Sequence record: KU052037.1
Reading direction: 5' to 3' (one strand)
Source: Escherichia phage Rac-SA53
DNA length: 52,291 nucleotides
In this document: positions 15,001 through 21,000 of the stretch, piece by piece
Layout: every line of letters begins with the position of its first letter
Position numbering within the stretch: the first letter of the stretch is position 1
Made by a program: the position numbers

Positions 15001-18000
15001 CGCGATACCGCCAGGACACTGAAAATTGGTATTAACACCGTCATCCGGACTTTAAAAAACTCGCGCCAAAGCGAATAACGTCTTCGCCTATTGCCCATGC
15101 TGATGTGGCGCTTATCTGCGAGCTTGATGAGCAATGGAGCTACGTTGGCAGTAAAGCCCGGCAACACTGGCTCTGGTACGCGTACAACACCAAAACAGGC
15201 GGTGTACTGGCCTACACTTTTGGTCCCCGAACCGATCAAACGTGCCGGGAGCTACTGGCACTGCTTACCCCCTTCAACATCGGCATGCTGACCAGCGATG
15301 ACTGGGGCAGCTATGGCCGGGAGGTGCCGAAGAATAAGCATCTGACCGGCAAAATATTCACCCAACGCATTGAGCGTAATAATCTGACGCTACGCACCCG
15401 CATTAAGCGGTTGGCTCGTAAAACAATCTGCTTCTCACGCTCAGTTGAGATCCACGAAAAAGTGATCGGAGCGTTTATCGAAAAACACATGTTCTACTAA
15501 TTGGATGCACTACCAAACATTTTATCGACATACCAACATGGTTAGCCGTCATTGCTTTTGTTAAAATACACATCCACTTTTCTGTGCAATGCTTAACCAC
15601 TGGTCATATCAAATGGCATTCATGCGAACCATGATATAGAATCATGGCTTGAGAGAGTCGATGAAAGCGCAACTATGGTATGAGAGACATTGATGTAAGA
15701 AAGGCTGTGCATGCCAAGATTCTGAGAGATCATCATAAAGATCCTGACACCCTAATCATTGATGAGTTTACGATGAATCTAGGGGCTAGCAGAGCTGATA
15801 TAGCAGTGATCAATGGGCTTATACATGGTTATGAGTTGAAGAGCAAGAGTGATAACTTGCTCAGATTACCAGCGCAGGTGCAACATTACTCATCAGTGAT
15901 GGATAAAGTAACGTTGGTTGTCTCTGATTGCCATCTTTATGATGCTTTAAGCATAGTTCCATCATGGTGGGGGATAAAGCAAGTTACGCAAGGTGCACGG
16001 CAAGGTATCCATTTAAAAACAATTCGAACTAGCAAGTTGAATCCACAAGTGGACAAACTTTCCTTAACAATGCTTCTTTGGAAAGATGAATTGCTTTCCC
16101 TATTAAGTGATGTAGGGGAGCTACAGAATTTGAAAAATAAACCTAAACGCGTCTTATGGTCAAAACTCGCCAATAGTATGGATGTTGGCGAGCTTCGTGA
16201 AGCTGTTCGAGTTAAACTTAAAGCCCGTAAAGAGTGGCGAGTTGCTCAACAACCTTAGTTATGTGATGGTTTTGCCCAATCCTACGCCATACCTCTGGGC
16301 TACCAAATTTATAGTTACCAGAGGGATTGGCTTTGTAGGCTTGATACTCGTTTGCATAATATTCTATGTCTCTATCTCCCGCACAGAATGTAGGCCCTGA
16401 ATATTCTCGATGAGCAAGAATATCCTCACTATGTTTACCATATTGTTCATAACCAAAGCGATTAGCTACTCTTCCTCGAAATACCCAAAAGTCATTATCT
16501 CCAGAGTATCTGACGCTGGCAGATACGCTAGGGAATCGCGTCGAAAGCCTATTAAAGTCGGGGTGCTGTACTCCATAATCACTATAAATCACATTTCTGG
16601 CAAGTTCTTTTCTATTCATTAAACTCTGCCATAAAATCCACTCGATTCGAGGTTGAGAATATAGACCAACAGAAATATCACTGAGATCTGTAGGAAATGA
16701 ACCCCCAGAAAGAATCACTTTTCTGTATTCATTGAGGTGCGCCAGATTGTTTATCAATCCCATTGCCAAAGTATATAGTTCGCCGGAATTAAGTTTATCC
16801 TCGGTTAACTCATCTCTTAAGTCAATAATTATATCAATATTTGATAAAGGAATTCCCAGATGATTAATGTAATGCGTTATTAATTGTGGATTAACCAGAT
16901 CTAACGTGGTTAATCTCAAGCATATTTCATTCTGCATTAATTCATCAATCGCTCTTTTATAGTTAGATGGGCGAGTTGGTGAACTGACAGGAATAACTCT
17001 TATCCCCATATCTCTAACTTGATTAACCGCATTTATTATAGGGTAATGATCTTCAGGAGAAATAAAATGCTCTTCAATTAATAATCCATCAATATAAACA
17101 CCTTGCATATCTGAGCAAGATTTTGAGACTTTCTTTCCGAACTCTATAAGGGTCTCGTTATAACTCTTTAAGGCAATACCTGAATCAGGGTCAATTGGCA
17201 CTGGTTCAATTTCGAGTAATGGCAAAATTTTTGATTTCTTTTCAATGGATAGCTGCGATAAAGCTGATAACTCAGAACGTTTCGCTTTCAGAATAGGAAT
17301 ATATGAAATTGTCATGTTAATACCTTATACAGAATCAATTAACAATTAATGGTTCTTCGGACATTGAAATTTATATCGCAAAAATTGGCAAACTCTCCTC
17401 GACTACTCACTTGTGGGTATCCTGGCGTAAAAGGAATGACTTGGCAATACCCGGTGTGATCATAAGTCATTGAAAATGATCATTTTTATCAGTCTTTCTT
17501 CCATGATGAATGCTAATGCCATTTGATTTGTTGAGGTGAAAACTGTTAAAAATCAAAACGATGTAATTGAAATGAACGTTCGGTAGCATTCACGCTTTAA
17601 ATGTTTCTTTTGTGCTGATTGGATGAATTTTGGTCACTTATGATGAGAGATGTTGCAGGAAAAGAAGTTGGCATTGATCTATTGGATAGTTAGAATTGCT
17701 GCGGGTGCTTGAGGCTATCTGCCTCAGGCATGAACACCAAAAGGCAGATAGAGAAAAGCCCCAGTTAACATTACGCGTCCGGCAAGACGCTTAACATTAA
17801 TCTGAGGCCAATTTCATGCTAGACACATGTAGGTTAGCCTCTTACGTGCCGAAAGGCAAGGAGAAGCAGGCTATGAAGCAGCAAAAGGCGATGTTAATCG
17901 CCCTGATCGTCATCTGTTTAACCGTCATTGTGACGGCACTGGTAACGAGGAAAGACCTCTGCGAGGTGCGAATCCGAACCGGTCAGACGGAGATCGCTGT

Positions 18001-21000
18001 CTTCACAGTTTACGAACCTGAGGAGTAAGAGACTCGGCGGGGAGAAATCCCTGTCACATCTGATGTGTCAGGCATCCTCAATGCACCCGATTTTGCCCCT
18101 CTCGATATTTTATTGTTAATTAATAAATATTATTAAACAGAATGTACAATGTCATGATGTTCTCATTGTTGGTTTTTATATCACGCGCAGTTTACCTTGT
18201 ATTCTTAATTTATATATTTTATATATTGTTATGTTTTCTTGGTTATTGCCTCATGTGAAATATTAATTAGAATCCTTTGGGCTTGATTTGCGCGCAGGGA
18301 GAAGATGGATGGCCCCCATAAAGGGGAACGCTATTTACCTGGAAGGATTCTAATGAAGAGTTTTGATAAATTGCGTGAAGCTTTGAGTGAAAATGGACTC
18401 TATGCGGTGCGTATCGAAAATGGAGAAATAATTTACACAACTGTAATCCCGGAAGATCATATAATTTTATCTGTTGAAGCTTTTATCGAATACATTGAAA
18501 GGATTGGTTTTAAGGTCATACGGGATTGAGTTATAATCTATAAGCCAGCCTGAACAACTGGCAACCTACAGCGCCATTGGAGAATGCAATGGCGCATATA
18601 CAACTGGTCAAACAAACATCTTCTGGATTACTTCTCCCGGCGACGCCGGAGAGTTGTGATTTCCTGCATCAAATAAAGATAGGTGAGTGGATACACGCTG
18701 ATTTTAAGCGCGTTCGTAACTACGCATTTCACAAGCGTTTTTTCAAACTCCTGCAACTCGGATTCGATTACTGGACTCCGGTCGGTGGGGCGATCACGTC
18801 CCGCGAACGAAAACTGGTGTCCGGTTTCGTTGATTATCTGTGTGACTCAGTCGGCAGGGAACATACGCCAGCCCTGAGTGATGCCGCAGAACAATATCTG
18901 AATACCATTGCGATACACAGAACCTGCGATACGGCATTGCTAAAGTCATTTGATGCTTTCCGTGAATGGGTAACTATTGAGGCCGGATTTTATACCGAGC
19001 ATTTTTATCCGGACGGTAACCGTGGGCGCAGAGCGAAATCCATCGCTTTTGCGAACATGGACGATACCGAGTTTCAGCAGGTTTATAAATCCGTACTGAA
19101 TGTGCTTTGGAACTGGATTCTGTTCCGAAAATTTTCCTCTCCTGATGAAGTCGAAAATGTGGCCGCACAGCTACTGGAGTTTGCGTAATGGTGAATTTAC
19201 GTAAAGCGGCAAAAGGTCAGATGTGTACGGTCAGAATACCTGGCTACTGCAATCACAATCCCGAAACGTCTGTGTTTGCGCACTACAGATTGGCTGGAAC
19301 GTGTGGAATGGCGATAAAGCCGCACGATATGCAGGCTGCGATTGCCTGTAGTTCATGTCACGATCTAATCGATGGGCGGATAAAAACCAGCGATTACACC
19401 AGAGAAGAAATGCGCCTGATGCACGCAGAAGGTGTTTTTCGCATGCAAGAAACCTGGAGAAAAGAGGGATATTTATGATTTACCCAATAAATATCGGAAA
19501 AAACGGGGAACATCTCCGTCTCGCCACACTGGAAAGTGTCTGGATTCAGGGGAAACTGCGTATGTGGGGGCGCTGGTCGTACATCGGTGGGAGAAAAATT
19601 GGGAGTATGTTTAACAGGTTGCTTGTATCACACACAATAACGAAATCTGCTATCAATGAAGCACTGCGCAGTATGAAAAAATCGGGTATTGAGAAAGCTC
19701 AACTTGAAGCATTTCTGCTGGAAATTATTAATGGAAGGCAAAAGAGCTGGTTGGTGCACTGTTCTGATACAGAGGCTTTGCTGATCGATAAGGTTATTGG
19801 TGAGGTACTTGGCAAACATCCAGGATTAATTTTTATCTTACGGCAGAGATATGAGGGGCACGGTATGAGTAAGCGCAAAATGGCTACGCGTTTAAACGAA
19901 ATATATCCTGAATGGTGCTTCAGTACTTGTGAAAAGAGAATCTCTAATTGGTTGGCTATTGCTGAATTTGCCTTATATACACCTATGCGTAATGCCTTTG
20001 CACAAAATTAAGCTTGATTCTTTACGCAAGAAACGGTATCTTTAGTTTAAGATGCCGTTCTTATACGCATCTCATCGCAATAAAGATTGCGAACAAAAAA
20101 CCACCAAGAGTGTTTTTTGTATTCAAACTCTTCAAATAAAAATAAGCTCTATCCTTTAATTTCATCAATACACATATACCACTTATAAAATTCTTGACTT
20201 ATAAACTCGGTGTATAATTTTACTTGCTCTTATGTTTGGGCTCTTCTTTAGGGGGTCGGATTGAACTATACCATCTAGGATAATGTATTTCTTTAGCGAA
20301 AAATAATTTATATATGGTGTGAGTTTCGGTTGTGTTGATTTTCAGATCTGGAGCTTATTAAGCAGGGGGGTATTGATATTGGTGTAGGTTAGCAGTATGA
20401 GAGTGTAATTGCTGTAGTGATTTTTAATAATAGCTTGGATATGTTTTAATTGTGAGGTGTATAAAATGAAGTTGAAGTCGTTAATTGCAGTGTTATTTGT
20501 GTCATTGCTTTCTATAAATGCTAATGCCAATGCAGACGTTAGTTCTGATGTTAGTTCTGATGCTGCAGGTGCGGGAGACACTGACTGGACCGGCGGGAAT
20601 AAAAATGGTATGTACTCTGATGTGATAATTAAAGATATTCATACCGGCGTTGTTGACCTAAAACCTTATTTTTGTGTTGAGGTTGCTAAGACTGGACTTG
20701 ATTTCAAAGCATGTCTGGTTCGCGGATACTCTGTCTGGTCCGGTGCTTATGACACATTTTATAATCAAGCAATGTATTATTATTCTACAGGGCAAAAAAT
20801 TAGATTGTATTATGATTCTCGCACATGGTCTCATGCCGGTTTTGCACAAATAACACAAAATGCGATAGCTGGGTTTTCTACATGTTCTTCGGATGATTAT
20901 TGCTTCGGTCCGGCAAGGAAACCGTCAGGTAGTTAAAATAGTATGGTGATCAAATGAATATTATAGTTGGCCTGTTATTGATTTTATTTTCTTTTGATTC

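Follow-up and report, generated by a model that had tools for sequence, protein, structure and literature searches.

A complete hok/mok/sok type I toxin-antitoxin cassette occupies positions 17668-18088 of the 52,291-nucleotide (nt) stretch of Escherichia phage Rac-SA53 DNA (sequence record KU052037.1) analysed here. This whole stretch is referred to as the window, and all coordinates are positions within it. Loci of the hok/sok kind are textbook type I toxin-antitoxin systems, and the first-pass annotation of this DNA had proposed such a locus with a 51-amino-acid (aa) Hok-family toxin, an overlapping upstream reading frame and a structured leader. The proposed identity held up in profile searches. 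The open reading frame (ORF) at 17873-18028 on the plus strand matches Pfam PF01848 (HOK_GEF) with E=4.4e-22 and 77.9 bits over profile positions 1-42 of 42, the cut-off being 22 bits. The leader gave an end-to-end match to the Rfam covariance model RF01794 'sok' at 17703-17878 on the plus strand (model positions 1-157 of 157; 122.3 bits, E=1.8e-27; gathering score 59), which is the check for hok/sok elements that the annotation had suggested. Because this match lies on the plus strand, the model spans the hok leader, whose complement contains Sok. Additionally, PHROG 251 'MokW-like host killing' matches the 70-aa mok frame with E=2.2e-31. The Pfam, Rfam and PHROG matches are far beyond chance, and the locus observation is therefore real.

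The E. coli SA53-3 chromosome (NZ_CP076279) is 100% identical to window 17316-18300 and carries a RefSeq annotation of hokD at the same place. The locus is thus already known, being annotated by RefSeq and close to the characterised hokW/sokW and hokD loci. The host element is an E. coli lambdoid prophage in which the cassette is apparently intact. We consider it very likely that window 17668-18088 represents an intact hok/mok/sok cassette of the hokD/hokW clade in the nin region of the prophage, with a mechanism that can be modelled from homology and folding. RefSeq marks only the hok coding sequence; the present analysis gives nucleotide-level positions for mok, Sok and the RNA elements. Motifs were mapped through alignment with R1-type hok/sok, K-12 hokC/mokC/sokC, K-12 hokD and the hokD common in Shiga toxin-producing E. 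coli (STEC). All canonical leader and 3' elements were located, where the first-pass annotation had taken absence of the leader elements as a sign of decay. The features of the cassette are as follows.

17668-17696, plus strand: hok mRNA promoter (-35 TTGGCA at 17668-17673, 17-nt spacer, -10 TAGAAT at 17691-17696).
17703-18088, plus strand: predicted hok mRNA body from tac to fbi, about 386 nt, placed by the Rfam start and by 5'-3' end pairing.
17703-17714, plus strand: tac, the translational activator element (GGGUGCUUGAGG), the predicted partner of fbi in the full-length transcript and of ucb after truncation.
17703-17731, plus strand: predicted metastable hairpin holding tac in the nascent transcript, from a fold of the first 38 nt.
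17754-17762, plus strand: ucb, or anti-Shine-Dalgarno (anti-SD) element (AAAAGCCCC), predicted to pair with the mok SD region or with tac depending on transcript length.
17754-17824, minus strand: predicted Sok antisense RNA of about 71 nt, positioned by transfer from the sokW misc_RNA (AF125520) and K-12 sokC.
17804-17807, plus strand: mok SD, GAGG, 8 nt before the mok ATG.
17809-17830, no strand assigned: hypervariable patch comprising the Sok 5' tail and its target, that is, the SD-ATG spacer and mok codons 2-5.
17816-18028, plus strand: mok frame, 70 codons, an in-frame 19-codon N-terminal extension of hok.
17831-17859, minus strand: predicted Sok promoter (-35 TTGCCT at 17859-17854, 17-nt spacer, -10 TAACCT at 17836-17831).
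17835-17845, plus strand: dcb, the downstream complementary box (UAGCCUCUUAC), predicted to pair with the mok SD in the truncated fold.
17858-17866, plus strand: hok SD (AAGGAGAAG), invariant in all five aligned loci including R1.
17873-18028, plus strand: hok toxin gene, 51 aa (MKQQKAMLIALIVICLTVIVTALVTRKDLCEVRIRTGQTEIAVFTVYEPEE), Pfam HOK_GEF, RefSeq hokD WP_202982212.1.
18036-18055, plus strand: stem-loop of the 3' untranslated region (UTR), 8 base pairs (bp) including two G-U pairs, the expected terminal stem of the processed active mRNA.
18076-18088, plus strand: fbi, the fold-back inhibitory element (CCUCAAUGCACCC), with 12 predicted pairs to tac in the full-length fold.

The promoter TTGGCA-17-TAGAAT is the top sigma-70-like site of the region and matches the consensus at 10 of 12 positions. 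Its location at 17668-17696 sets the mRNA start at about 17703, which is also the first position of the RF01794 model. The 5' boundary of the cassette was further examined in 69 distinct full-length phage loci from IMG/VR. These were gathered by the tac motif, which biases the tac columns only, and tac is invariant among the relatives picked in this way. Entropy per 10-nt block across the 69 loci is about 1.0-1.4 bits upstream of 17688 and at most 0.5 bits from 17688 on. Homology with hokW of phage 933W begins at the -10 hexamer of this promoter.

The predicted structures of the transcript resemble those of plasmid R1. In the minimum-free-energy fold of 17703-18095 the 5' end is paired with the 3' end (-157.3 kcal/mol, z=-7.15), and R1, folded as a positive control, adopts the same closed architecture. 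The 12-bp helix between tac (17703-17714) and fbi (18076-18088) is found in both the minimum-free-energy and the centroid structures, and it contains a U4-A pair where R1 has C-G, a compensatory change. In the same full-length fold the ucb region (17758-17768) pairs with the mok SD region (17797-17808), the SD itself being homologous to the GAGG mok SD of R1 (G105/A106). Truncation at 18058 switches the predicted fold, such that 17756-17762 (ucb) pairs with 17703-17710 (tac) and 17804-17818 pairs with 17826-17841 over 14 bp (mok SD/dcb). Additionally, the first 38 nt are predicted to form a 13-bp hairpin (-19.8 kcal/mol, z=-4.05), in keeping with the role described for the metastable 5' hairpin of R1 (PMC9841398). 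The functions of the leader elements and both conformations have been described for R1 in the same work (PMC9841398), and our computed folds reproduce the published closed-to-open switch. The full-length fold also contained a further long-range helix, joining the mok start (17816-17834) to the 3' UTR (18058-18075). Its 3' partner is near-constant whatever the patch at 17809-17830, with duplex energies from -5.7 to -17.9 kcal/mol across the 69 phage loci. Since there is no covariation across these loci, this helix is not claimed.

The overlapping frame upstream of hok proved to be of a particular kind. An ATG at 17816 does open a frame that contains hok, but this frame is the same as that of hok and does not overlap it out of frame. 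As mok starts 57 nt before hok in the same frame, it encodes a 70-aa extended Hok. The 57-nt in-frame layout occurs in 53 of the 69 phage loci and is annotated for K-12 mokC/hokC and 933W mokW/hokW; an in-frame mok is a clade trait, not an anomaly. The R1 mok is read in a different frame from hok (58-nt offset, from alignment), and the mok frame is thus not a defining feature of the family. V41I and A46V are the only differences between the hok product and the commonest phage HokD. The motif TACG at 18011-18014, comprising the Tyr47 codon TAC and the following G within UUUACGAA, is invariant in all 69 phage loci and lies in the loop of a small predicted hairpin at 18006-18020. Editing of the hokC, hokD and hokE mRNAs by TadA (A to I) recodes this Tyr to Cys (bioRxiv 10.1101/2025.08.07.668861).

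The Sok promoter had been expected on the minus strand around the mok start. The predicted promoter lies instead between the mok and hok starts, 15-43 nt downstream of the mok start codon, in the same layout as in R1 (TTGCGC-17-TATCCT, from alignment). A consensus scan missed this promoter because it matches at only 8 of 12 positions, which is under the scanning threshold. The segment that holds it, 17826-17873, is 100% identical to 933W. In 933W/Sp5, a mutated -10 element left sokW without antitoxin activity and exposed the toxicity of HokW, and growth was partly restored by sokW provided in trans (PMC8621323). The predicted 5' end of Sok at 17824 falls in mok codon 3. Similarly, the sokW of 933W is recorded in GenBank as a 71-nt RNA beginning at the ninth nucleotide of mokW, and sokC of K-12 begins at the equivalent nucleotide of mokC. 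The predicted Sok fold has a 15-nt single-stranded 5' tail followed by a long terminator-like hairpin and UUUU (-28.6 kcal/mol, z=-4.89). This hairpin is longer than the Rfam consensus by an insertion of about 16 nt; K-12 SokC, at 59 nt, has a terminator hairpin that lacks the extension.

The 5' tail of Sok and its target fall in the most variable block of the cassette. In the 69 phage loci, positions 17809-17830 reach up to 1.9 bits per column, against 10-nt block means of at most 0.4 bits elsewhere, and at least eight distinct versions of the patch are present. Because Sok is cis-encoded, its tail and its target change together. It is plausible that this variation reflects diversification of specificity among co-resident hok/sok copies. 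Of 5426 complete E. coli genomes, 4715 contain matches to parts of the query, at a median of two and a maximum of ten places per genome, and 78 phage records and many plasmids match as well. We tentatively suggest, as a possibility that falls somewhat short of an even chance, that 17809-17830 acts as an address code preventing cross-neutralisation among co-resident copies. If this is true, the window carries one of at least eight specificity types, with a mok that begins MLDTC.

From homology and folding we infer the following mode of action. Transcription from the promoter at 17668-17696 would yield a hok mRNA of about 386 nt, and in the nascent stage tac would be locked in the metastable 5' hairpin. 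Once fbi (18076-18088) is transcribed, tac would pair with it and ucb would mask the mok SD, leaving a full-length mRNA that could be neither translated nor recognised by Sok. Slow trimming of the 3' end as far as the stem-loop at 18036-18055 would strip off fbi, allowing tac to pair with ucb and the mok SD to shift into the SD/dcb (sokT) hairpin. Ribosome entry at mok (17816) would then drive translation of the in-frame Hok membrane toxin. Sok would be a short-lived antisense RNA of about 71 nt, running from 17824 to 17754 on the minus strand from the promoter between both start codons; its 15-nt single-stranded tail would pair with the mok start region, leading to cleavage of the duplex. Hok would be made only once Sok synthesis stops, for instance when the element is lost, transcription is shut off or the prophage is induced.

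The closest characterised system is hokW/mokW/sokW of the Stx2 phages 933W and Sp5 (VT2-Sakai). Like the window locus, hokW lies in a lambdoid prophage and has a 57-nt in-frame mok and an identical Sok promoter region, and its sokW of about 71 nt starts at mok codon 3, as predicted for Sok of the window. Neither locus has the canonical terminator after fbi. Nucleotide identity between the cassette and 933W hokW is 93.5% across 17691-18089, with homology extending exactly from the -10 hexamer to fbi, and column entropy over the 69 phage loci gives the same boundaries. In contrast, hokW differs in six substitutions within the Sok 5' tail and target (17809-17823), in the C-terminus of Hok (TEIAVFTVYEPEE versus TEVAVFVDYESEK), in the -35 region and in both flanks. 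Hok toxicity and its neutralisation by Sok have been demonstrated for hokW/sokW, a working type I toxin-antitoxin pair that aids the release of phage Sp5 (PMC8621323). The biological role of the window cassette is less certain than the mechanism. By analogy with hokW, the cassette most likely serves to retain the prophage and/or to assist lysis when the prophage is induced; the classical alternatives are post-segregational retention and phage exclusion. Loci of the hok family are enriched in prophages (bioRxiv 10.1101/2025.08.07.668861).

The other relatives place the locus within the family. The protein is identical at 49 of 51 positions (V41I, A46V) to HokD (RelF) of the K-12 Qin prophage and to the common STEC HokD, and the common STEC locus has the same sce7726 and beta-family neighbours as the window. 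Unlike in the window, everything upstream of the hok SD in K-12 hokD, including tac, ucb, mok and Sok, is replaced by relBE. Since K-12 hokD keeps only the part from the hok SD onward, the window locus is the full-length counterpart of that truncated gene. K-12 hokC (gef)/mokC/sokC shares with the window the in-frame 57-nt mokC and the same tac sequence, and IS186 lies 20 nt downstream of K-12 hokC. Plasmid R1 hok/mok/sok (parB) has the same RNA elements, predicted full-length and truncated conformations and Sok promoter layout, whereas its Hok protein is distant (44% for HokW versus R1 Hok; PMC8621323). The R1 locus is plasmid-borne and has a role in post-segregational killing.

The window locus appears to be a mosaic. 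Its 5' part, 17316 to about 17955, groups with the common STEC sce7726/beta/hokD lineage, to which identity is 97.7% over 17316-18089. From about 17968 on, diagnostic substitutions and the downstream flank follow another lineage, found in 16 genomes. These patterns point to a probable recombination crossover inside the hok coding sequence, at about 17955-17968.

The first-pass annotation had also noted that the locus adjoins a candidate defence pair, and this adjacency was confirmed. The beta-family gene at 16218-17315 (minus strand) matches Pfam Beta_protein (E=2.4e-52) and PADLOC PD-Lambda-2_C (E=1.4e-41). Its partner, the sce7726-family gene at 15680-16258 (plus strand), matches the PADLOC model 'cll' (E=2.4e-28), and the two genes form a convergent, overlapping pair. 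Hok itself was tried as a PADLOC defence protein and gave no match. An IS1 copy lies at about 14806-15500, just upstream of the sce7726 gene.

This neighbourhood raises the alternative that the cassette is an abortive-infection or anti-phage module, forming a small defence island with the beta-family/sce7726 pair, and not a retention or lysis helper. Besides the PADLOC matches, such a reading is consistent with the occurrence of the whole sce7726/beta/spacer/hokD block in the common STEC form and with the spacer (17316-17667), which is carried by 93 of 5426 E. coli genomes with at least 99% identity in 92 of the 93. R1 hok/sok has furthermore been reported to lower T4 plating, as cited in PMC8621323. 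We nevertheless regard a defence role as unlikely. Genome-wide, the proximity of hok to defence systems shows no enrichment (12% observed versus 9.4% expected; bioRxiv 10.1101/2025.08.07.668861). The hok cassette recombines independently of its flanks, its homology blocks ending at the -10 hexamer and at fbi, and the sole experimental precedent in a prophage, hokW, promotes phage release.

At the 3' end of K-12 hokD, common STEC hokD and most IMG/VR loci, a GC-rich hairpin with a T-run, CCCGCTTCGGCGGGTTTT, follows fbi by about 9 nt. Homology of the window with the common STEC form and with 933W stops at 18089 and gives way to AT-rich, unstructured DNA (28% GC). The mosaic junction at 18089/18090, directly after fbi, is common to the 16 E. 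coli genomes. A different terminator-less junction is found at the same nucleotide in 933W hokW, and other phage loci carry yet other sequences past fbi. A substitute terminator was sought in folds of 18028-18100, 18090-18190 and 18140-18190, none of which stood out from shuffled sequences (z from -1.0 to +1.4), and an AU-rich hairpin with a U-run near 18146-18177 is unconvincing as a terminator at only -4.6 kcal/mol. We also rejected terminator loss as a decay event unique to the window, given the shared junction in 16 genomes and the independent terminator-less junctions in 933W and other phage loci. Because the functional hokW also lacks the canonical terminator, its absence does not exclude membership of the family. 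A possibility weaker than the address code is that hok transcription passes the terminator-less 3' end and enters the nin and Q-like genes beyond it. A small ORF at 18305-18529 (plus strand; 74 aa, 58 aa in the RefSeq version) matches PHROG 340, of unknown function (E=3.6e-15), and would be the first gene met by any such read-through.

Several observations weigh against an intact and working cassette. The CCCGCTTCGGCGGGTTTT terminator is not present after fbi in the window, and a consensus scan of 17250-18350 found no terminator-like site. The 3' stem-loop, at -13.6 kcal/mol, is the weakest of six homologues (hokW -15.0, common hokD -19.7, R1 -21.5), and it carries a window-specific C-to-T change at 18052. 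Of the 16 relatives with the same 3' flank, the two that were inspected both carry a damaged hok, annotated in each as a 40-aa 'Hok/Gef family protein'. STEC711 (L006, 2100-2500) has an internal deletion of about 123 nt from the mok SD through hok codon 9, including the Sok promoter, and in BMH-17-0027 (L007, 2100-2500) the 5' part of hok is replaced. All five chromosomal hok loci of K-12 were reportedly found inactive by Pedersen and Gerdes in 1999.

Such points could mean that the locus is a decaying or attenuated hok relic, which looks complete and yields no working pair, its 3' end having been swapped after fbi so that, with a weak stem, the mRNA would be unstable or subject to read-through. 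K-12 hokD offers a precedent as a known truncated relic without the whole leader. In R1, single changes that break the 3' stem, such as loss of a C-G pair, abolish both the truncated mRNA and toxicity (PMC9841398). The changes in the window stem, however, are from G-C to G-U and are not disruptions, and the functional hokW has a similarly modest stem as well as no canonical terminator (PMC8621323). Furthermore, no damage is seen in the ORF, in either SD or promoter, or in tac, ucb, dcb and fbi, and the folds retain the predicted switch. We therefore consider a relic quite unlikely and continue to favour an intact hok/mok/sok cassette.

The first-pass annotation had suggested that the 500 bp upstream of mok (17316-17815) may hold regulatory RNA elements. 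This applies to 17668-17815, which contains the promoter (17668-17696) and the leader (17703-17815), and not to 17316-17667, where no RNA-family, ORF or remote-homology signal was found. That these further 350 bp or so encode additional regulatory RNA elements of the hok locus is highly improbable: the stretch has no annotated gene (in any of the 93 carriers) or convincing ORF and is conserved among the carriers, but Rfam, PHROG, near and distant DNA and repeat searches were all empty, and neither 933W hokW nor most other hok loci contain the stretch, their homology beginning at the -10 hexamer. Specifically, a permissive Rfam scan returned nothing in 17316-17625 and, outside that interval, only matches at the level of chance, such as one to the sok model on the reverse strand at 17626-17762 (13.7 bits, E=2.9). 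The four small ORFs of the stretch had no PHROG match, no homologue below 90% identity was present in the 5426 E. coli genomes, and the repeat search returned only weak repeats of 10-23 nt. The stretch is AT-rich like the beta and sce7726 genes (32-37% GC, against 49-54% for hok). Since this composition and the absence from other hok loci fit a region upstream of the beta-family gene better, 17316-17667 is best read as the upstream or promoter region of that divergent gene.

In the wider prophage, the RefSeq gene order runs from replication genes through the sce7726 and beta-family genes and hokD to DUF1367, DUF1364 and DUF1133, a subtilase-family AB5 toxin (eplA), lysis genes and an enterotoxin. 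The subtilase-family AB5 toxin (binding subunit and eplA) lies at about 20466-21697 and the enterotoxin A family protein at about 23488-24267, both downstream of the Q-like DUF1133 gene (positions mapped from RefSeq). The presence of these genes indicates that the prophage is toxin-converting. It is a matter of speculation that a lysis-assisting or retention module in a prophage with AB5-toxin genes may bear on toxin release.

The window contains a second type I system. A full-length Rfam match to RalA (218.5 bits) was found at 2379-2557 on the plus strand; this small RNA is the antitoxin in RalR/RalA, a type I toxin-antitoxin pair that is known in the Rac prophage. Additionally, Rfam sRNA-Xcc1 is matched at 42816-42899 on the minus strand with 78.1 bits against a gathering score of 53.

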